A DNA stretch of 64,000 bases from a virus. Where the stretch lies: positions 1 through 64,000 of the IMG/VR virus record IMGVR_UViG_3300047548_001390. The stretch is one strand, 5' to 3'. The first letter of the stretch is position 1. The number at the start of each line of letters is the position of its first letter. The position numbers and the translations under genes are program-made. Below are positions 3,794 to 35,728 of the stretch, in pieces. The notes under the pieces are model-generated. The model was given only the letters and a program-made list of their open reading frames with translations. It searched no databases and was not told the DNA's origin.

Positions 3794-3801
3794 TATTTAT
3801 T
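3794..3801 (-). promoter_or_regulatory. late promoter (AATAAATA) for gp3
   Basis: NATAAATA consensus immediately after the gp23 terminator. Confidence 0.6.
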
Positions 3802-6187: not shown

Positions 6188-6195
6188 TATTTATA
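6188..6195 (-). promoter_or_regulatory. T4 late promoter TATAAATA for gp22-gp23
   Basis: Exact T4 late consensus about 25 nt upstream of the gp22 ATG. Confidence 0.8.
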
Positions 6196-6235: not shown

Positions 6236-6808
6236 TTAACTACCTAGTAACTTATTTAAGTAGTAGTAATTAATACCCAAAGCATCAATTGCTTCTTTCT
6301 TGCAGCTATAATGAATTCCATTCACAATAACCGGCTTTGCTGCAGGAGCTCCTCCACCTCTTCGGCTTTCGCAAAACTCCTGCGATCTTTTTTTACCTCT
6401 GTTTGATTCGGCTCGAGCATTGACGTATTCCGGCAATTGCTTCCTACCTTTTTTAGCTTCACTGAGTTTTCTTCTCGTTTCGCTAGACGGTTTTCTTCCT
6501 AAATTAGCCAACCTCATTTTATGTCTCGTTACATCTGATTTATTAGATGTACCTTCACCTCCGTCAGTCTGATTATGTAAGATACCTGTGCCAATATCCT
6601 TACGACCATACCACAGAATGTATCTTCTTTCGAGTGCAAGAGCACCAACCTCAGTCAATTTATGCTCTAGAAAAACTATTCTCGCCTTATCTTTAGGAGG
6701 TCTATGACCAACTGTTGAAACAAAAGCGCGGTTTGCTTGACCTTTGCCAATATAATATGGCGTACCATCTTCGCGTAAATAAGCATAAACGTAGAACTTC
6801 AACATCAT
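6236..6808 (-). mobile_element. GIY-YIG homing endonuclease with NUMOD3 repeats
   Basis: [38 protein letters not shown]; inserted between gp21 and gp22. Confidence 0.88.
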
Positions 6809-7461
6809 TACTTAATATTGTTCAGGAAGTTCTGAAACATTCTTGCTTGAGATTCTGCCAACTGTTTAGTCGACATTTTTTTAATGTCAGATTTAAGCTG
6901 CTCAGCCATAACCCAAGATTTTGTAGATGCGTTATACACCCACTCAGCTCCTTCCATCACCCCTTCAACAAAAGCATCAGGAGCAGAAGGATCTGCAACG
7001 ATATCAGCAGCAGTAGCTAGCATGAAATCGTCTTGAACAAGGTTCACACCATTTTTTTGAACAAGTGAACCCATACCACGAGAAGATACGCCAAGCTGTG
7101 CACCTTCATCAATCAAAGACTTAACAATCTTGCCATATGGTGTATCCATAATCTTTGCTTTTCCAACCCAATTATTACCATCAAGTTTCAACGACTTGAT
7201 CATGTGGGAGACGCGGTCAAGATTAATGGTTGGGGAATCGGGATGACCTAATTCACCAAAAGCACGATTTTTAGTAATGTATTCTTTGTTGTAACGGTTA
7301 ACTTCTTTCTCCATGATCTCTCTTGGATACATACGACCGTTACGGTTCTTTAAGTTAGATTGGAGGAATACGCCTTCAATAAAGTACGATTTTTCTTTCG
7401 TCCCTTTGGCTTCCTCAACAATCAACTTAACTTCTTCTGTGTGTTCCTTTATGAGCTTCAC
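6808..7461 (-). CDS. gp21: prohead protease gp21
   Basis: [40 protein letters not shown]. Confidence 0.97.
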
Positions 7462-7470
7462 TATATTTCC

Positions 7471-7938
7471 TTAAGGAGCTACGTAGTCTGGGCTACCGTT
7501 AATTGTTGTGCTAGCACCAACACGAGTTGGATCATCATAAGCACCGTATGTAGCATCTTCAACTTTAGTCTTATAGCCACCAGTCTTACGGATTCTCAAC
7601 CAGCAAGAAGCTTGAGCTCCAGAAATGGCAACTACGATATCAGATGCAGCACCAATTGTATCAGGAGGCATATCCTGACCGCTAAAATCTAAAAATCCAG
7701 CAGCGTTAGCTTGCAATGTCATAACAACGACACTATTACGTGTAATCGTGATAACACCATCTGCAGCACCAGTCCATGTTACTCCAGCAATTGTTGCTGT
7801 TTGGGTTTCACCGTCTAATGCTTGATTAGAAAGTAACAAATCAGTTGCTAATGCGATTGTTGCAGAACCGTCTGTGCCAGACACTTTTACAACAGCTTCC
7901 TGAGCAACATTTTTTAAAATAGTTTTGACGACTGCCAT
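7471..7938 (-). CDS. hypothetical structural protein in head cluster
   Basis: 155 aa ORF in the operon between gp20 and gp21. Confidence 0.65.
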   Translation of the reverse strand: MAVVKTILKNVAQEAVVKVSGTDGSATIALATDLLLSNQALDGETQTATIAGVTWTGAADGVITITRNSVVVMTLQANAAGFLDFSGQDMPPDTIGAASDIVVAISGAQASCWLRIRKTGGYKTKVEDATYGAYDDPTRVGASTTINGSPDYVAP

Positions 7939-7939
7939 T

Positions 7940-8500
7940 TTAATCCTCTATTTGGTCTACAACATTTAAAAAGTTTTCAACTGATTCGCGCATATACTTA
8001 ATAACATCTTCATGCTGCCCGAATATATTATTTATGCGGTTGTACAAATCTTCTGATACCACTACTGAAGTACCATCATTTAACGTAAAATCAAATCTAC
8101 CTTCTATTAAAGTGTCTAAGTTATTGATCTTTCTTATTTCTAATGACACAGGATCAGCGTTAAATGCTTTAGATGCTGCCAATTGAATGTAAGATTCAAT
8201 CAACGTATCCGTTACCTTCACATCTGTGTGATGCTTTCTAATAATGGAAGCAATCTTACTATCAGGAAGATCCTGATACATCTCCTCCTGAAGGTCATTT
8301 AATACAGATCGTTGTATTCTTGATTCTGTAATATGTTGCTTTGCTTCTTCAATCGAATGAAATAATGTAGGCTGTTTATCAATTAAAACAACCCCATCAT
8401 CTCCTTCAGAGATAACGTGTTCGTAACAGGTTACTCGTCTAGATATTCCTGTACCGGTCAACTTTTCATAAAGAGATGATTGGAGTTTTTTGTAATTCAT
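7940..8500 (-). CDS. hypothetical head-cluster protein
   Basis: 186 aa, ATGA-coupled to the upstream gene. Confidence 0.65.
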   Translation of the reverse strand: MNYKKLQSSLYEKLTGTGISRRVTCYEHVISEGDDGVVLIDKQPTLFHSIEEAKQHITESRIQRSVLNDLQEEMYQDLPDSKIASIIRKHHTDVKVTDTLIESYIQLAASKAFNADPVSLEIRKINNLDTLIEGRFDFTLNDGTSVVVSEDLYNRINNIFGQHEDVIKYMRESVENFLNVVDQIED

Positions 8501-10988: not shown

Positions 10989-11018
10989 AGGGGTCCGTAG
11001 ACCCCTGTTATATTTATT
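10989..11018 (-). promoter_or_regulatory. late promoter AATAAATA (11011-11018) followed by a leader hairpin for gp19
   Basis: AGGGGTC-TACG-GACCCCT stem-loop just downstream of NATAAATA. Confidence 0.65.
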
Positions 11019-12948
11019 AGCCGCCAATTTCGTCAAACGAGATTCCGGTGCGGACAGCAACGAAATTCAGAGTGATGAAGTTAATCGAGCGAGCAGGTTT
11101 AATGTAGATATCAGCAACAAACTCGTTACGATCAATGACTTCGCCAGTGTTGTTTGTTTCGTCACAAATAACACGGAAGTCAATAACACCTCGACGACCT
11201 TGAACATCTCTTAAGAATGGCTCGACTAAGTTCTTAAATTGAGCACGTGTAAAGAAGTCGTTGAATTCAAACAGCTGATACTTAGCAGCCGTTGCAATTG
11301 CTTTTTCAAGGACAATAAACAGTCTACGTACGTTGATGCGGTCGAAAGCAGAGGGTTTAGCCAACAATGTTTTATCACCAAACAGAACAGTTCCCTGACC
11401 TGGGAATGTAACAACTGGGTTAATACCAGCTTTGTACAACTCATCGCGTTCCGTCTTATTGGGTGTAACGTTAAGTCTAACGACATTTTTGATCTGACCT
11501 CTATTCAAACCACCTGGCGACCACCAAGGATCATTTGTAAGATCTGTGCGTGCACACAACCCAGCGATATCACCATTCAATGGAACCCAGCGATACTTAT
11601 CGTTGTAGCGGTCATATTGGTATTTCCAACCAGAATCAAGAACACCATACGAGGAGCTAACATTAAAGGAAGATTGTTGACGGAATTCAATCGTTTTCTC
11701 AACAATGTCCAACCCCAGGATAACATTACCAGAGTTTGTGACTGGGGAAACAAACGCAACACAATCTTTACGAACTTCAGCAATTTGTTCAATAACAAAT
11801 TTGGCTACTGGAGCTGTGACAGGACCTGTAGGAATCAATGAAATGTCGTAAATTTCCGAGTTTGCAAAAATTGAAAATCCTTCTTGCAGCTGACCGGCAG
11901 TTGGAGACAAGTCATCTACACCACCATCAAGATTAGAAACGCTAAGAGATGACAACGAAGCAAACGTAGAATTTCTTGCCTGTGATCCCCATGCTGCACC
12001 AACACCAACAGCTGTTGGGTGATCCATCCACCAGATGTATTTGGAATTAACGTTAATGACGTTTCTGTAATAATTATTTGTTCCGTCTGGTTTTCTTGCG
12101 TCAACTGCTTTAGACACAAACTCGAACTTTTCCAAAATTGCACCACGAGTGCCAGTCCAAGCACCGTTGTCGTCAATCAAAATAACGTGCATTTCATCGT
12201 TAAGACCATTAACACCATCAACGTACGTTGAGGTTCCTGGTGCTGAATCAAATTCTGTGCGGTATGTCCACGAGCTAAATGTAGCCGAGTCAGCCATTTC
12301 GACACGAATCGAATTACCTAACGATCCAGGATATTTGGCAGCCCAAGTTCCAACAACACCAGCACCGTTTGCATAATTGGTTTCATACTCAACTTCATTT
12401 CTAATCTTAATACCGCCAACAACAATTTCTGGTGTACCATCAAAATCGACACCAACACTGTCAGTGACCGTAATGGTTGGGGCAGAGGTGTACCCAGAAC
12501 CTGGATCGGTAATGTTAATGCTTACAATCACGCCGTCTTCAACAACTGCCGTGCCTGTAGCTGTAACTCCACCAGTAATCTGAGGTGCGGAAAATTCAAC
12601 AACTGGATTTAGATATCCTGAACCACCAGCAACAATCTCAACGTTTGTGACGGTACCAGAAAGGGTAGAAACTGCGTTACGAGCTGCTGTGGTATCAACA
12701 CGAACCAACAAAAGATTATTTGTGTAAGCCAAAAAGTTAGCAGCAGTAAACCATGAAGCTGCATTGCCGTCAACAGGACGTCCAAAACGGGATACTAGTT
12801 GATTTTCCGATGAGATCGTTGTGGTATCCATAACAGGACCCCACATGAAAACACCAGCGTAAGCGCCTGTGGATGTGGCCACAGCAGGTACAATATTAGT
12901 CAGGTCTTTTTCGGTGACCAAAACCCCAGGTGAAAGCTGAAAAGCCAT
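11017..12948 (-). CDS. gp18: tail sheath protein gp18
   Basis: SPGVLVTEKD, PWWSPGGLNRG, FDRINVRRLF, YIKPARSINFITLNFVA. Confidence 0.98.
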   Translation of the reverse strand: MAFQLSPGVLVTEKDLTNIVPAVATSTGAYAGVFMWGPVMDTTTISSENQLVSRFGRPVDGNAASWFTAANFLAYTNNLLLVRVDTTAARNAVSTLSGTVTNVEIVAGGSGYLNPVVEFSAPQITGGVTATGTAVVEDGVIVSINITDPGSGYTSAPTITVTDSVGVDFDGTPEIVVGGIKIRNEVEYETNYANGAGVVGTWAAKYPGSLGNSIRVEMADSATFSSWTYRTEFDSAPGTSTYVDGVNGLNDEMHVILIDDNGAWTGTRGAILEKFEFVSKAVDARKPDGTNNYYRNVINVNSKYIWWMDHPTAVGVGAAWGSQARNSTFASLSSLSVSNLDGGVDDLSPTAGQLQEGFSIFANSEIYDISLIPTGPVTAPVAKFVIEQIAEVRKDCVAFVSPVTNSGNVILGLDIVEKTIEFRQQSSFNVSSSYGVLDSGWKYQYDRYNDKYRWVPLNGDIAGLCARTDLTNDPWWSPGGLNRGQIKNVVRLNVTPNKTERDELYKAGINPVVTFPGQGTVLFGDKTLLAKPSAFDRINVRRLFIVLEKAIATAAKYQLFEFNDFFTRAQFKNLVEPFLRDVQGRRGVIDFRVICDETNNTGEVIDRNEFVADIYIKPARSINFITLNFVAVRTGISFDEIGG

Positions 12949-12967: not shown

Positions 12968-13006
12968 ACGAAGTTAGTTCCACACTAAATCTTCGTATTA
13001 TTTATT
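12968..13006 (-). promoter_or_regulatory. late promoter AATAAATA (12999-13006) plus leader hairpin for gp18
   Basis: NATAAATA followed by an ACGAAG...CTTCGT stem. Confidence 0.6.
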
Positions 13007-30136: not shown

Positions 30137-31000
30137 TTAAATCAACGGCTTCATTGTGCAGATGTAATAAATCGGCTGTGGTTCTCCATTCATCATCGGA
30201 AGAATGGTCATTTTGAACCTGTTATCGTAAATATCAGACCAACTTCTATTACTTTCTATCGTTTCCCACATTTGATCATATGAATTGATATAGGGAACAC
30301 ACATAATCATGTCTCTTCCTACAACATTATCATAATGACCAAAATCAAATATATCGACAAACCGATCGTTACAAAAAAACATTTTTTTATGTTTATCAAC
30401 AATAAAAATGATATCAGAGGCTGAATTCAGAGCATTGAAACACGCTTTTGTACGCTTTTGTTTTTCGCGGATTGACGTAACATCGCGGCCAATGATAATT
30501 AGCTCTTTTCGTGACCCGTCCACATTGAATACCGGGGTTTTCAAAATATCAAAAATGTATGTCGAACCATCGTGTGGGATGTATTCTTCAGTTCTACACG
30601 TCTTTTTTGTGTTCCACGCCTGGTTGTCTGTCACTTGACATTGAGATAACGACTCAAATAGATGAGGATATACCTTCTTTAATTGTTCATCCGTTTTACC
30701 GTAGTACTCACCGTGATGCCAATTATAAAGACACTGTCCCCGATGGTTCAGCGTCCTCCACTTCCCTTCCCCATCTTTCACTATGACAAGATCATTAATA
30801 GCATCAATAGTAGAATAGAACCGAGATTCAGAAGCATGCAACTCTTCTTGCAATACAGTAGCGGCACTAACGGCAGCTTCGGATACCTCCATAGCTGTAG
30901 TGCTCAATAGGTTAAGACTCTCATCAAGTTGTTTGAGGTCCACCTGATGAGAGTCTTTTTTATGCTGTTTTTTGGGTTTATTTAAAAGACGGGAAATCAT
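30137..31000 (-). CDS. PAS-domain protein (one full PAS/PAC plus a second degenerate PAS), no output domain
   Basis: ESRFYSTIDAINDLVIVKDGEGKW..LN, FDILKTPVFN.DG...IIIGRDVT, ALNSASDIIFIVD. Confidence 0.85.
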   Translation of the reverse strand: MISRLLNKPKKQHKKDSHQVDLKQLDESLNLLSTTAMEVSEAAVSAATVLQEELHASESRFYSTIDAINDLVIVKDGEGKWRTLNHRGQCLYNWHHGEYYGKTDEQLKKVYPHLFESLSQCQVTDNQAWNTKKTCRTEEYIPHDGSTYIFDILKTPVFNVDGSRKELIIIGRDVTSIREKQKRTKACFNALNSASDIIFIVDKHKKMFFCNDRFVDIFDFGHYDNVVGRDMIMCVPYINSYDQMWETIESNRSWSDIYDNRFKMTILPMMNGEPQPIYYICTMKPLI

Positions 31001-31009
31001 AGCTACTCA

Positions 31010-31288
31010 TTACTTTCTATTGGATTGAATAGTAATGAGCACGATCTTGATTTCGTTTAATGCTTGAACAAGATCTAAATTGCCTTTATGATAACGATCT
31101 ACAATCTCTTTGATTGATGTGGTTTCACTGTCTTTTGCTTCATATACTAATTTGGTTGTTTCTGTGAGGTTTTTAGAGAGAGTTTTACGGTCCCAAATCA
31201 ATACACCTATAGCGACAAACAATATCGTAATAACCGCTGCTTCTCCCCCAGCAGCTAAGAATTTTAATAGCGTGTGGGCGAAATCCAT
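31010..31288 (-). CDS. small single-TM protein, holin-like
   Basis: 92 aa with TM AAVITILFVAIGVLIW followed by a charged coiled coil. Confidence 0.5.
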   Translation of the reverse strand: MDFAHTLLKFLAAGGEAAVITILFVAIGVLIWDRKTLSKNLTETTKLVYEAKDSETTSIKEIVDRYHKGNLDLVQALNEIKIVLITIQSNRK

Positions 31289-31311
31289 AGTGGGTTGTTT
31301 CCTTGATTAGC

Positions 31312-31348
31312 CTTTCACGAGACTTTGTGAAAGTGCCAATTATTTATG
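31312..31348 (-). promoter_or_regulatory. late promoter CATAAATA (31341-31348) plus leader hairpin
   Basis: NATAAATA, then a near-perfect CTTTCAC..GTGAAAG stem upstream of the TM+PAS pair. Confidence 0.55.
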
Positions 31349-31368
31349 TGATTTGATTGGCTTGATAA

Positions 31369-31605
31369 TCAATTTGAAGATAGTAAATCTTTAGCCCTCT
31401 GGACGTCCGCTAAATGTGACTTTTTGCAGTGCTCTTTTTCAAAAGGGTAAAATAATGCATCAATGATTAACTGAGCGTATTTCCATTGTTGGCGATAGGA
31501 TCTACCGCTAATACTTTCGTTTGACGTCGTCTCGTCTATTCTAGGCAAAAACATTACATTTAGCAGTTGGCTTAAAGCATCGCCAATCATTAGTAATCGT
31601 TTCAT
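31369..31605 (-). CDS. conserved phage hypothetical protein (likely start 31605)
   Basis: SQLLNV..NESISGR..ID.LF...HC motif; 78 aa. Confidence 0.65.
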   Translation of the reverse strand: MKRLLMIGDALSQLLNVMFLPRIDETTSNESISGRSYRQQWKYAQLIIDALFYPFEKEHCKKSHLADVQRAKDLLSSN

Positions 31606-31606
31606 T

Positions 31607-32455
31607 TTATGGCTGATCCCATATATTAGTCGCCTTAAAAAACTGTCCGTTTGTATAATCAGTATAAAAATCAAAATTATCTATTGTAACACCCTCCATG
31701 TAGGCATATTTTTTTACATCATTGAAATACACATCTGCAGTGTACTTTTCCATTGGTAAAACATTTTTATCACGAATCTTACATTCGCGGAGATGGTCAA
31801 CCCCTTCTTTCCCCCAGATACCAGTTAATAAATGCCGAGTAATAATTTTTGGATGGTAAGCCATTCCGTGATTATTGAACAATTCTCCTGGAAGTGGAGT
31901 GATCCTTTTGTATCCGTATTCTTTAATTGCTTCAAACACAAGTTTAGGTCCAGCCACATTAAGAACAAACTCTCTGTTTGATTGCTGATCAAAAGGTAAG
32001 GTAATCTTTGTTGTTTCTTTCAGTCTGTTGAACGATGCAACAGCCATCTCCATACAGGTCTCAAAAAACGTATGACCAGCTGAAGATATCATCAAAGCGT
32101 TTTCGATAGGAATATCACCATACGGTGCCTGAACAATGTATACTCCTGACCTCAAATTGCGGTCAAATCTATGATAGCAGAACACATCCATATCTGCATA
32201 GATTCCACCATACTTGTGGAGTATACAGAATCTAGCAAAATCAATTTTCATGATGTGAGCAGGGAACTGTTGGAAGGTTTCCCAGTACTGCGGATAGTGT
32301 GTTTCAATTAAATTGTCGAGATCTTCGTGGTCATTCCAAAGTTTGAACTGATAGTCCGGAAATTTGGACAACCACGAATCTCGACAAGGTTTCCATAAAG
32401 GATGCCACTTTGATTCGTCACTTGGTGCTATATGATGTATAATTTTTGGAATCAT
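31607..32455 (-). CDS. GT32/OCH1-like DXD glycosyltransferase
   Basis: MIPKIIH, DFARFCILHKYGGIYADMD, AGP. Confidence 0.9.
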   Translation of the reverse strand: MIPKIIHHIAPSDESKWHPLWKPCRDSWLSKFPDYQFKLWNDHEDLDNLIETHYPQYWETFQQFPAHIMKIDFARFCILHKYGGIYADMDVFCYHRFDRNLRSGVYIVQAPYGDIPIENALMISSAGHTFFETCMEMAVASFNRLKETTKITLPFDQQSNREFVLNVAGPKLVFEAIKEYGYKRITPLPGELFNNHGMAYHPKIITRHLLTGIWGKEGVDHLRECKIRDKNVLPMEKYTADVYFNDVKKYAYMEGVTIDNFDFYTDYTNGQFFKATNIWDQP

Positions 32456-32479
32456 ATTATAACCTTAGTCACGTTTTTG

Positions 32480-32594
32480 TCAGTTTTAACGTTATGTTGT
32501 TTTAAAATATCTGAGAATTCCTTGTTGCTTGCGTTATTTGCATTAATAAATTGTATGTTAATTTATAAATTGGTAGTTCTTTTGTTTGTGCCAT
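32480..32594 (-). pseudogene. avd: truncated, frameshifted avd-like (DGR accessory four-helix-bundle) remnant
   Basis: 32502-32594 encodes MAQTKELPIYKLTYNLLMQITQATRN(SQIF*), and a shifted frame continues LRYFKTT*. This resembles the Avd N-terminus pattern LPIYK..Y.LL......N.PR.FK. It lies 29 nt after the DGR-type target gene. Confidence 0.7.
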
Positions 32595-32623
32595 AATATA
32601 TTCTCAGTTTAAATAATTAAATG

Positions 32624-33973
32624 TTAAATTACAAATCTCCGGACTGCGCGGACCCTGGCGCTGAAAGTCTTATTGGTGTTGCTCGGGGAGCCACCGTTGA
32701 AATCCTGGAACCAAGCATTGGAAGCACCGACCTCGCTGGAAGACCAGTAGTTGTCTGCGTCATTGGTTTCACCAGAAGGTAACGAAGCCCGATTGACCCA
32801 AGCAAGATTTAATTCATCTTTAGCTGGAAGGTACCAATCTGAGAATCCACTAATACTCAGTCCTCTTGTATAAAAAGCAGCAGGATGTGTTGAATTGTTC
32901 ATGTTATTAGTATTTGTCCAGCCATCAACCAAAGATGTTGTTCCACTAGTTGTTGTGCCAGTGGTTTTCCATTGTAACGTAGATGCAGACTGGCCCGATG
33001 CCTTTGGCGCTAACAGTATACCATACCATACCCCACTTACACTTATATGTCCAATAAAATATCCGCCATCAATTAGAGAACCAAGCGTTGAAGTGTAAAT
33101 ACTAAATCTCCGGACTGCGCGGACCCTGTAGCCGGTAGTCTTAGTGGTGCTGATCTGGTCGCCACTGGAGAAGTCCTGGCCCCAAGCCTCGGTTTCAGTG
33201 CGATGACTGGAAGACCAGTAGGAGACTGCATCATTAGCTTCACCGGAGGGTAATGACGCACGAGAGGTCCAAGCAAGATTTAGCTCGTCTCTAGCTGGAA
33301 GATACCAGTCTGCATATCCAGATGCAACGATCCCTCTTGTATAGCTTGCTGCAGCATGCGAAGAGTCGTTCATAAAGTTCGTATTGGCCCAGCCATTGAT
33401 TGCAGATGAGGTTCCACCAGTTGTTGTGCCAGTGGTTTTCCATTGTAACGTAGATGCAGACTGGCCCGATGCCTTAGGTGCTAACAGTATACCATATAGT
33501 ACTCCATTTACACCTAGAGCTCCAATATAATAACCACCTTGATATGATGCACCAAGTGAAGATGCGAATGAAGAGTTAGTAACAAAAGTTGTTCCGGACG
33601 ACCAGGCAGAATAAGTTCCATTTGCATCTTTATAACGCACTCTCCAGTAATATGTGGTGGAGTTACTCAACATTCTCCTTGGGTTAAAAGTATAGGATGT
33701 ACTAGTTCCTGCAATGTCACCGGTGGAAATCACAGTGCTTGCGAAGTTTGATACTGTTGACACCTGAAACTGCGCAGCTGCCATTGAAACGCCATTAAAT
33801 GATGTATATGATGACCCGATTAATGTAATATTTTCAAAATTTGCACCAGTATTTGTAGTACCATCAGCAGGAGTCACATTAGTTGGTTTAATGAGACCTG
33901 TTAGCTGAGTCCCATCACCAATGAATTCTTTGTTATCTGTGATAACAGTAACGCCAGAAATTTTAACAGCCAT
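32624..33973 (-). CDS. virion adhesin: FN3-like domain plus two tandem DUF1566 (CLec-fold) domains; DGR target-type protein
   Basis: YYWRVRYKD; two copies of DWYLPA.DEL...YWSSS...AW.QDF..G......K.....RVRAVRRF. Confidence 0.88.
   Translation of the reverse strand: MAVKISGVTVITDNKEFIGDGTQLTGLIKPTNVTPADGTTNTGANFENITLIGSSYTSFNGVSMAAAQFQVSTVSNFASTVISTGDIAGTSTSYTFNPRRMLSNSTTYYWRVRYKDANGTYSAWSSGTTFVTNSSFASSLGASYQGGYYIGALGVNGVLYGILLAPKASGQSASTLQWKTTGTTTGGTSSAINGWANTNFMNDSSHAAASYTRGIVASGYADWYLPARDELNLAWTSRASLPSGEANDAVSYWSSSHRTETEAWGQDFSSGDQISTTKTTGYRVRAVRRFSIYTSTLGSLIDGGYFIGHISVSGVWYGILLAPKASGQSASTLQWKTTGTTTSGTTSLVDGWTNTNNMNNSTHPAAFYTRGLSISGFSDWYLPAKDELNLAWVNRASLPSGETNDADNYWSSSEVGASNAWFQDFNGGSPSNTNKTFSARVRAVRRFVI
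32633..32758 (-). repeat. DGR variable region VR2 with IMH-like 3' end
   Basis: Paralogous to VR1 at an offset of 471 bp; 25 identical 3' bases (32633-32657); mismatches at codon positions 1-2. Confidence 0.8.
33104..33229 (-). repeat. DGR variable region VR1 (internal) with IMH-like 3' end
   Basis: See VR2; identical block 33104-33128 CAGGGTCCGCGCAGTCCGGAGATTT. Confidence 0.8.
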
Positions 33974-33984
33974 TTTGATTTCCT

Positions 33985-34542
33985 TTATTGAATATTAAAA
34001 GCAACAACAAATACTTCATCTAATTGTTCTTTTGTCCAACCCATTTGCTTGTACAGTTCTTGTATCGTGGGGCTATTTTTTCTCACTTCAGTTGCATATT
34101 CCCATTCAATCAGCACTTTTGTCTTCATTGGTTCTTGTAAACCTTCAACAAAAGATTGTACTTCAGCCAATTTACCAAGCTCAAGCAGAGCCAATCTAAT
34201 TTGTCTAGCACTAGCGACAGAAGGTAATCTCGCCTTCATCTCGTCTGCTTTAGCTTGATCATATTGTTGTTGAGCAGTTGTTGTTTCCGTCACTGGATTA
34301 CCATCAGCGTCAAGAGTTGACGTTGTAATATCCTTAAACACGTGTACAACACCTTCTACTAACAGGTTTGCATCATCATCGCAGGTGCCATAGTATTTTG
34401 GTACTCGGGTTGGCCAAACACTTTCATCCCACCATTCGATTGCTAACCCTTTTATATCAGGATATTTGGGACCATTGATGGTGGGAGATTTTGAAGCAGA
34501 GACCCCGGTAACGGAATCTACGTGGGTAACACAGATATACAT
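33985..34542 (-). CDS. putative tail fibre assembly/accessory protein
   Basis: NGP.YP, YYGTCDDDA, SARQIRLAL, IEWEYAT, LDE.F; adjacent to the adhesin. Confidence 0.6.
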   Translation of the reverse strand: MYICVTHVDSVTGVSASKSPTINGPKYPDIKGLAIEWWDESVWPTRVPKYYGTCDDDANLLVEGVVHVFKDITTSTLDADGNPVTETTTAQQQYDQAKADEMKARLPSVASARQIRLALLELGKLAEVQSFVEGLQEPMKTKVLIEWEYATEVRKNSPTIQELYKQMGWTKEQLDEVFVVAFNIQ

Positions 34543-34545
34543 TTA

Positions 34546-34570
34546 TTACTCCTTTGTTGTAAAGGAGTAA
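34546..34570 (-). promoter_or_regulatory. RBS-sequestering hairpin
   Basis: TTACTCCTTT-ACAAC-AAAGGAGTAA perfect 10-bp stem whose 3' arm is the SD of ORF 33985-34542. Confidence 0.7.
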
Positions 34571-34619
34571 CAATATACAGATGGAAGGTAGCCATCATCG
34601 TTCTCCTTCTGAACTCGGT

Positions 34620-35465
34620 CTACTGGTTTTCTAATTTATAAAGGCGTGCTGATAATTCTTTTATTGACTCTATTAAATATGCTGTTAATCCAGCATAGTT
34701 GACATTTTTAATTCCGTCAACACTTTGATCTACTAGGTGAGGTAAAATATTCTCTAACTCTTGCGCAATAACACCAGCAGATTTTTTGCCATTGTCTTTC
34801 CATTCAAATTCAACGCCTCTCAATTGATTAACGATCGACGTTGCATCCATAACATTATTTATGTTGTTTTTGAGTACGATGTCAGAGGTTGAATTAAAAT
34901 TTGTTGTGGTTAGCGTTCCTGTACCCGAATCATACGTCAAATTAGTCGACCATGACGTTGAAGTTCCGTTTGTCGTTAAAAGACGTCCAGCGTTTCCGGT
35001 TTGAGTTGGTAACACTTTCGTTTCGTTTAATGAGGTAATCCATGCTGGATTAGCATACGATCCCGTTATAAGTACAGCATTTGTTACTTTGGAGCCAGCT
35101 AAACTGGTAATCCAAGAAGGATCAGCAATTGTTCCTGTTAATTTAACAACATCCAAAGAAGTAATCCAACCAGGATTGGCAGCTGTCCCTGTTAATTTAA
35201 CAACATCCAAAGAAGTAATCCAGGCAGGATTTGGATACGTTGCTGTTGTGTAGACACCATTCGTAACGGTTGCAGCGTTACCACTAATCGAGATACCCCA
35301 CGTCCCCGATGCCCCTCCGCCTACCAACGTTGGTTTATTAGCAAGATCATCATTAATTGACTTGAAGTTTCCATCAACCTCTAAGTTCGTTAACGGCGCA
35401 TTCTTGACCGTTGTGGAAGTAGGAGTTGTTGCAGATGCAGAGGTTCTATACAGTAAATTAGCCAT
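34620..35465 (-). CDS. tail fibre protein with PxWITSL repeats and S74 chaperone
   Basis: KNAPLTNLEVDGNF N-terminus, four PxWITSL repeats, SD..LK.NI / GVIAQELE. Confidence 0.85.
   Translation of the reverse strand: MANLLYRTSASATTPTSTTVKNAPLTNLEVDGNFKSINDDLANKPTLVGGGASGTWGISISGNAATVTNGVYTTATYPNPAWITSLDVVKLTGTAANPGWITSLDVVKLTGTIADPSWITSLAGSKVTNAVLITGSYANPAWITSLNETKVLPTQTGNAGRLLTTNGTSTSWSTNLTYDSGTGTLTTTNFNSTSDIVLKNNINNVMDATSIVNQLRGVEFEWKDNGKKSAGVIAQELENILPHLVDQSVDGIKNVNYAGLTAYLIESIKELSARLYKLENQ
35134..35222. repeat. 35-bp exact direct repeat, 54-bp period
   Basis: cctgttaatttaacaacatccaaagaagtaatcca at 35134-35168 and 35188-35222. Confidence 0.9.
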
Positions 35466-35491
35466 TTAAATATCCAGTTGAACTATGTTTA

Positions 35492-35728
35492 TTAATCCAG
35501 TTCTTTATTTGTAATACGGTTGTTTATGTCTGTTATTGATTTCGAAAGAGACTCAACAACAACTTTTAACTCAGACACTTCCTTCATTAGATTATTTATT
35601 GTCTCAGCTTGTTTCTTTTCTCTCAAATAACGACGATATTCCGCATCGTTCTTTACAGCAATTGTTCCTAAATTATCTTTGAATAAACCAGGAACAACTG
35701 CACCAGATTCATCTTTAACTTTAATCAT
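35492..35728 (-). CDS. small coiled-coil protein following the DUF4815-like genes
   Basis: GL.KD..G.I..K...EY..Y, then a coiled coil; ATGA overlap. Confidence 0.7.
   Translation of the reverse strand: MIKVKDESGAVVPGLFKDNLGTIAVKNDAEYRRYLREKKQAETINNLMKEVSELKVVVESLSKSITDINNRITNKELD

Follow-up and report, generated by a model that had tools for sequence, protein, structure and literature searches.

Has a phage here lost its diversity-generating retroelement (DGR), the kind of system that rewrites the tip of a tail-fibre protein, and kept the tips that had been written? The question is raised by a locus in which a gene with two lectin-type domains is followed by a 30-codon open reading frame (ORF) and then by a glycosyltransferase gene. 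It lies in the window, by which we mean the whole stretch of DNA that was analysed, the first 64 kb of a 78,106-bp IMG/VR virus record with a completeness of ~49% (CheckV). Our answer is that the interval 32452-32594 is very probably the internal deletion scar of a DGR beside a tail-fibre-type gene. This reading follows from the 5' end of avd at the target and a probable RT end at the glycosyltransferase, in a record where no RT, TR or further avd sequence was found. The features of the locus, in the order in which they are transcribed, are these:

32624-33973, minus strand: former DGR target, 449 aa, with an Ig-like N-terminus and two tandem Lcl_C/DUF1566 (C-type-lectin-type) domains
33104-33220, minus strand: VR1, YWSSS...RVRAVRRF, placed by a codon-by-codon alignment of the repeats and by the TRs of 19 relatives
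32633-32749, minus strand: VR2, placed by the same alignments as VR1
32595-32623, minus strand: target-avd spacer, 29 nt, conserved at the DNA level with the T4-like relatives L067 and L064
32517-32594, minus strand: avd remnant, codons 1-26 of a bAvd (PF22296-type) gene
32452-32520, minus strand: probable 3' end of the lost RT gene, in the +1 frame relative to avd, ~22 codons plus TGA at 32452-32454
31607-32455, minus strand: glycosyltransferase, GT32-like, with a DXD motif (Pfam Gly_transf_sug, 1e-16)

To judge from its gene content, the window is the structural region of a T4-like myovirus. PHROG matches cover baseplate hub/lysozyme, wedge subunits, tail-tube cap, sheath and portal, and the minus strand of the window carries nearly all genes; a megablast search of 31000-35500 against GenBank phages gave no match. 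The core of T4-type late promoters is ATAAATA, which occurs 20 times in the window, in all 20 cases on the minus (coding) strand (for example, at 3794-3800, 6188-6194, 11011-11017, 12999-13005, 31341-31347, and 35593-35599). The total count is not above chance and only the strand bias is striking; most copies lie a few tens of nucleotides 5' of gene starts, as T4-type late promoters would. Since the exact motif is absent from 32455-32624, a single late transcript appears to span the target, the scar and the glycosyltransferase. Directly upstream of the target is a 185-aa gene (33985-34542, minus strand) that is homologous to a tail-fibre assembly-chaperone-like gene (Phage_tail_APC in L004 and L024). 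Relatives have this gene on the downstream side of their DGR cassette or scar, and the window phage thus shows chaperone and target in inverted order.

The remnant between target and glycosyltransferase

The stub ORF runs on the minus strand from 32594 to 32502 and has 30 codons, MAQTKELPIYKLTYNLLMQITQATRNSQIF, with its ATG exactly 29 nt past the TAA of the target gene. Beyond codon 26, where the avd piece ends, there are four more codons and then a TAA at 32502-32504. The initial annotation had described this ORF, a shifted frame after it and a glycosyltransferase start not far beyond, and had recognised the peptide as the N-terminus of an Avd protein. All of its coordinates are right: the shifted frame does read ..GILRYFKTT up to a stop, and the glycosyltransferase start is 46 nt from the stop of the stub and 36 nt from that of the shifted frame. 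The assignment to Avd is also borne out, by an alignment to the intact bAvd of locus L003 with 14/25 identities (pairwise BLASTP E 8e-8) and by a family-specific profile.

That profile was needed because the remnant is too short for general models to see. Pfam and NCBIfam scans of the 30-mer, on its own or joined by an X bridge to its frameshifted continuation, find no Avd family and return only a sub-threshold PTPase match (E 0.04), and the PF05635 and PF22296 models find no match in the whole record. The L003 Avd has more than 240 homologues, all annotated as PF22296. We built a custom profile from 121 PF22296-annotated bAvd homologues, which gives the stub 26.8 bits (E 8.8e-7 across 4088 six-frame segments of the whole record); the runner-up has an E value of 1.4, and the profile detects no other avd-like segment in any frame of the record. 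When the L003 Avd itself is searched against the 78 kb, the stub is again the sole match (E 6e-4). The stub shares 15 to 18 of 26 residues with intact members of the Avd family, P0091 being the one with 18/26. Taken together, the L003 alignment, the single-site match, the profile and the shared residues lead us to regard the stub as the genuine 5' end of an avd gene at its proper position. The PF22296 family match holds for stub residues 1-26 only (PF05635 is a related family), and the ORF ends after 30 codons, short of the complete Avd four-helix bundle of about 110-120 residues.

What, then, is the sequence that follows the stub? In the 65 nt that follow the stub, the +1 frame reads KEFSDILKQHNVKTDKNVTKVII up to a stop, and a +1-frame reading through the scar gives ..NKEFSDILKQHNVKTDKNVTKVII before the same stop. 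We took 40 distinct RTs from the family's intact loci and compared the segment with their C-terminal 45 residues. Many of these RTs end in ..(F/T)D(K/N)(D/N)LTK(V/I/L)I.., often with a stop that overlaps the ATG of the next gene as ATGA, and in the window the TGA of the RT frame (32452-32454) overlaps the ATG of the glycosyltransferase (32453-32455) in this very way. The window segment ranks first of 4088 six-frame segments against the 40 C-termini (27.8 bits; second, 26.1 bits). Its best matches are at the extreme C-terminus, where KTDKNVTKVI resembles KTDKDLTKVI of L030 and NVKTDKNVTKVI resembles NVRFDKNLTKII of L024. An RT-tail profile gives the segment 8.3 bits (genome-wide E 0.66), which is not significant by profile alone, and the assignment turns on about 12 residues. 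The pairwise rank, the placement at the extreme C-terminus, the ATGA overlap and the analogy with the scars of relatives point to the segment being, probably, the last ~22 codons of the deleted RT.

The avd/RT junction lies within about 32497-32520. A second reading of bases 32497-32516 takes them as avd continued in a shifted frame, with LRYFK as avd codons 28-32; this is a less likely variant that adds only ~4 bits. It uses the same nucleotides, and the two readings exclude each other. A sigma-70-like promoter match (CTGACA-16-TATAAT, 11/12) lies within the putative RT tail at 32456-32483 on the minus strand, its end one base short of the glycosyltransferase ATG. Being too close to the start of that gene, the match is probably due to chance.

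The arrangement that would have been lost is seen in relatives. In L003, a homologous target is followed after 23 nt by a 118-aa bAvd (PF22296, E 3e-12), then by a 129-nt TR and a 372-aa RT (RVT_1, E 1.5e-17), so that an intact target-bAvd-TR-RT locus stands at the same position; its TR/VR mismatches fall at TR adenines in 17/17 cases. A pattern search based on the Avd alignment returned 73 loci, 52 of which have full avd and RT. In all 52 intact loci of this Avd family the cassette adjoins the target, and nearly all mismatches in the 38 distinct TR/VR pairs from intact loci are at TR adenines. The family includes T4-like fragments with intact cassettes, among them L010, which has six structural genes in common with the window.

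We propose that an ancestral T4-like phage would have carried target(VR1,VR2)-avd-TR-RT-glycosyltransferase in a late tail-fibre operon. Roughly 1.5 kb would have gone in a single internal deletion, or in an initial deletion with later erosion: avd from about codon 27 on, the TR, and about 340 RT codons. What was left of RT, its last ~22 codons, would thereby have been joined, out of frame, to avd codon 26. The deletion would have been limited on the left by the 3' end of the target and on the right by the RT stop that overlaps the start of the next gene; bounded in this way, it would leave both extreme ends of the cassette in place. The glycosyltransferase, formerly the next gene after RT, is the right-hand limit. 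The order of the deletion events given here is what we infer.

The nearest relatives have similar scars. L067 (glycosyltransferase 48% identical to that of the window, several other genes in common) has an avd scar of 36 codons after its target, and L064-66 (43% identical, some other genes in common) have 52 codons and an RT tail. A 2OG-Fe(II) oxygenase comes next after the scar in either case, and glycosyltransferases after that. The spacer and the first ~33 avd codons align at the DNA level among the window, L067 and L064. Since the window breakpoints (26 and ~22 codons) are nested within those of L064, one shared older deletion followed by erosion accounts for the window, L064-66 and L067 as well as separate events do. 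Exact-pattern scans of viral and metagenome contigs and a protein-pattern scan of metagenome contigs found no close relatives of the window phage, a pattern search of viral contigs with the glycosyltransferase found no relative, and among close relatives no intact DGR turned up, the nearest targets being 45-50% identical.

The variable regions and the missing machinery

Is there independent evidence that the target was once diversified? The target has Pfam matches to Lcl_C (5e-21, in two stretches) and Ig_Rha78A_N (8e-7), and is 41-49% identical to the targets of intact DGR loci. Its tandem lectin domains arose as a 471-nt internal duplication, visible as a direct repeat with 75-78% identity. 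Within 32627-33568 the two lectin copies are mosaic: a core of ~85 nt (TATGGTATACTG...CAACAACT) and the VR end of 25 nt show little or no difference, and the flanks are only ~70% alike. Such a pattern hints at gene conversion from copy to copy, or else at selection acting on this DNA. Tandem or multiple VRs are also found in the relatives L048, L073 and L024. L048 has tandem VR-like copies at 1137-1275 and 1687-1856, with a TR present and only RT positions 5-116 detected; L073 has them at 6644-6701, 7342-7472 and 8071-8240; and in L024 an extra VR-like copy (11957-12102) lies on the opposite strand about 9 kb away.

Both VRs of the window close with an identical 25-nt GC-rich block (33104-33128 in VR1, 32633-32657 in VR2), a candidate for an IMH-type 3' boundary. 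With the TR of this locus gone, adenine mutagenesis was assessed indirectly, through an alignment of the two VRs with 19 TRs from relatives. Of the columns that have A in most of these TRs, 22/43 differ between VR1 and VR2, as against 11/86 of the other columns (Fisher p 8e-6, odds ratio 7.1). In the 3' half of the VR, 11/12 differing codons change only at positions 1-2. The TR of L003 aligns to both VRs (72% over 83 nt, 65% over 95 nt). The gene thus has a C-terminal VR in a lectin-type domain together with the adenine-mutagenesis pattern, and the concentration of VR differences at template-adenine columns and at codon positions 1-2 argues that both lectin tips were written by a DGR.

The machinery itself is missing from the record. 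No RVT_1 match is found in the 78 kb at E<=1, and tblastn of the L003 RT against the record has a best E of 3; the record has no gene for a DGR-clade RT, and at most the probable ~22-codon remnant of its C-terminus. A sensitive blastn search with both VRs finds only VR1 and VR2 in the record; there is no third copy, hence no TR. The initial annotation had stated that no TR or RT follows the stub and had advised a search for an RT across the genome. That search finds none in the 78 kb of a ~49%-complete genome, and the statement itself stands for intact components in the whole record and needs amending at the junction, where an RT tail (~22 codons) probably survives. The further proposal, that the avd-TR-RT cassette was deleted and two selected variants were frozen, fares well in its first part, with an Avd N-terminus in the syntenic place and the cassette absent; the freezing is what we infer from the loss of the cis cassette, the cassette kept by the target in all intact relatives, and the complete relatives that have no RT. 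The two lectin tips would no longer be rewritten and would evolve by ordinary mutation.

Alternatively, as the initial annotation also considered, the local cassette may be dead and the VRs still diversified in trans by a DGR elsewhere in the phage genome or in the host. We consider this unlikely, though it has more in its favour than the other alternatives. The record covers about half of a genome, the identical 25-nt block at the 3' end of both VRs could still act as an IMH, the VR 3' halves are nearly without drift at third codon positions, and remote targets do occur in this Avd family, as the second VR copy of L024, ~9 kb off on the other strand, illustrates. However, the 78 kb without RT or TR include the whole tail-fibre region, and 52/52 intact loci keep the cassette next to the target. 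Downstream of VR2 there is no hairpin better than those of shuffled sequence (z 0.16). In addition, RT is wholly absent from two scar-bearing relatives whose records are nearly complete (rated 90% and 100%). We therefore retain the deletion of the cis cassette, with tips that are no longer rewritten, as the preferred reading.

Scars elsewhere in the Avd family

How common are such remnants? The avd 5' piece occurs without the rest of the gene in ~19 loci (some 13 distinct sequences), and in 10 of the 14 scars examined, that of the window included, it is joined directly to a C-terminal piece of RT. About a quarter of the IMG/VR contigs found with the Avd N-terminal motif carry such scars; both search patterns lay within avd residues 7-34 and could find N-terminal stubs only, so this frequency is rough. 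The TR is absent from all scar loci and present in the control loci L003 and L024. Apart from the window, the fusions are as follows:

L041: avd codons 1-113, RT from about profile position 314 of 363
L062: avd codons 1-63, RT from about position 302
L068-70: avd codons 2-57, RT from about position 315
L064-66: avd codons 1-52, RT from about position 320
L004: avd codons 1-47, last ~10 codons of RT
L078: avd codons 1-26, last 11 codons of RT
L001/L002: avd codons 1-23, last 33 codons of RT, in frame
L073: avd codons ~1-20, RT tail piece GERKK...TKI
L079: avd codons 1-19 plus 68-75, last 26 codons of RT

Several breakpoint pairs cannot be converted into one another by further deletion, since one has the longer avd and the other the longer RT. 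This geometry, in L004, the window, L001 and L073, points to at least four independent deletions, with further events in other RT subfamilies. The L001 junction falls on AGAAAA(A), which is found in the intact L003 avd (T-R-K) and in the RT tail (E-R-K-K), and the scar looks like a microhomology-mediated in-frame deletion. If such junctions are typical, breaks might tend to fall where Lys/Arg codons rich in A give avd and the RT tail a microhomology, as L001 suggests.

Other loci show further forms of decay. In L079 (483-638), avd codons 1-19, avd codons ~68-75 (ERVQVIEL) and the last 26 RT codons follow each other in one frame, a compound scar that takes at least two deletions. L071 (10001-10913) has avd codons 1-23 fused to RT 75-362, the TR and the RT N-terminus gone and most of the RT ORF kept. 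In L072 (3021-3260) and L077 (1356-1460), an avd stub (residues 1-32) opens a reading frame that goes on through GC-rich, unrelated coding sequence and lacks an RT tail; the avd end may here be fused to some other gene, or the replacement may be of a different kind.

The retention of avd stubs of 18 to 63 codons in many lineages could be taken to mean that the 30-codon ORF is a functional small gene, or that the DNA is kept for regulation, as a promoter or for translational coupling of the glycosyltransferase. The window offers some material for the second idea: the I-Y-K codons give TATAAAT, one base short of ATAAATA, and an SD-like AAGG stands before the glycosyltransferase ATG, within the RT tail. 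Yet the lengths and frames of the stubs vary by locus, several being out of frame or internally deleted, as is expected of neutral remnants between two needed genes. The apparent retention comes from a sample biased by N-terminal patterns, and the late-promoter motif in its exact form is lacking between target and glycosyltransferase. We think a retained function improbable, somewhat more so than diversification in trans, and the preferred reading is still a deletion scar, which would have no function.

Least credible of all is an assembly artefact, in which contig collapse or a chimera would conceal a real phage with intact avd-TR-RT: the contig is metagenome-derived and TR/VR repeats can confuse assemblers, but a TR/VR collapse would lose avd and fuse VR to TR, and would not produce a junction between avd codon 26 and the 3' end of RT; the overlap of the scar with the gene that follows is a clean ATGA, and the same scar type is found in independent assemblies of relatives, with identical scars in two or three assemblies each (L001/L002, L064-66, L068-70) arguing further against it.

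It is tempting to generalize from these loci. Near-maximal deletions that leave the first 20-60 codons of avd and the last 10-50 of RT might be the usual, repeated and independent way in which DGRs are switched off, and the gain and loss of DGRs in tail-fibre modules, those of lytic T4-like phages included, might be a fast turnover that can be counted from scars. We offer this only tentatively, as an idea that may well turn out to be wrong.

Relation to known DGRs

In the canonical phage DGR, of the type found in Bordetella phage BPP-1, the order is mtd-VR, avd, TR, brt. The ancestral locus that we reconstruct would have had the same target-avd-TR-RT order, as do the DUF1566/Lcl_C-target, bAvd (PF22296) DGRs of L003, L024 and L010. 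The likeness to both types extends to the VR, placed C-terminally in a receptor-binding domain of lectin type, and to details of the bAvd DGRs, where avd starts 23-30 nt after the target stop and the substitutions in relatives are adenine specific. Unlike intact DGRs, the window has 26 avd codons, about 22 RT codons and no TR, and unlike the canonical DGR its target has two tandem VR domains. The locus is an ordinary decay of a known system, recurring in related phages, with no new mechanism.

Its value is as a base-resolved case in which a phage loses targeted hypermutation of a receptor-binding protein and keeps the diversified product. DGR finders need an RT and therefore overlook orphan lectin tips; scars could help to annotate such "orphan" hypervariable tips, and could mark the rates of DGR loss and retention in phage lineages. 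The locus also places a DGR lineage in T4-like myoviruses, whereas a survey of isolate phage genomes found DGRs in temperate phages only (PMC6199706). The most useful by-product is that the scar design returns repeatedly within one Avd family, at breakpoints that are independent of each other; we found no description of avd-RT fusion scars in the DGR literature searched.

Loss of the machinery has been described in cells. Treponema denticola isolates have target genes without RT or TR (PMC4891356), and cyanobacteria have degraded DGR cassettes and orphan VR paralogues, for which removal of the machinery once a good variant has been selected was suggested (PMC7517822). Like the window, these remnants have lost the diversifying machinery and kept the diversified target. 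However, the Treponema and cyanobacterial cases are cellular and described at the level of gene presence or absence, whereas the window is from a phage and its junction is resolved, from avd 5' to RT 3'. Here, in contrast to those remnants, the scar design recurs with different breakpoints within one phage DGR family.
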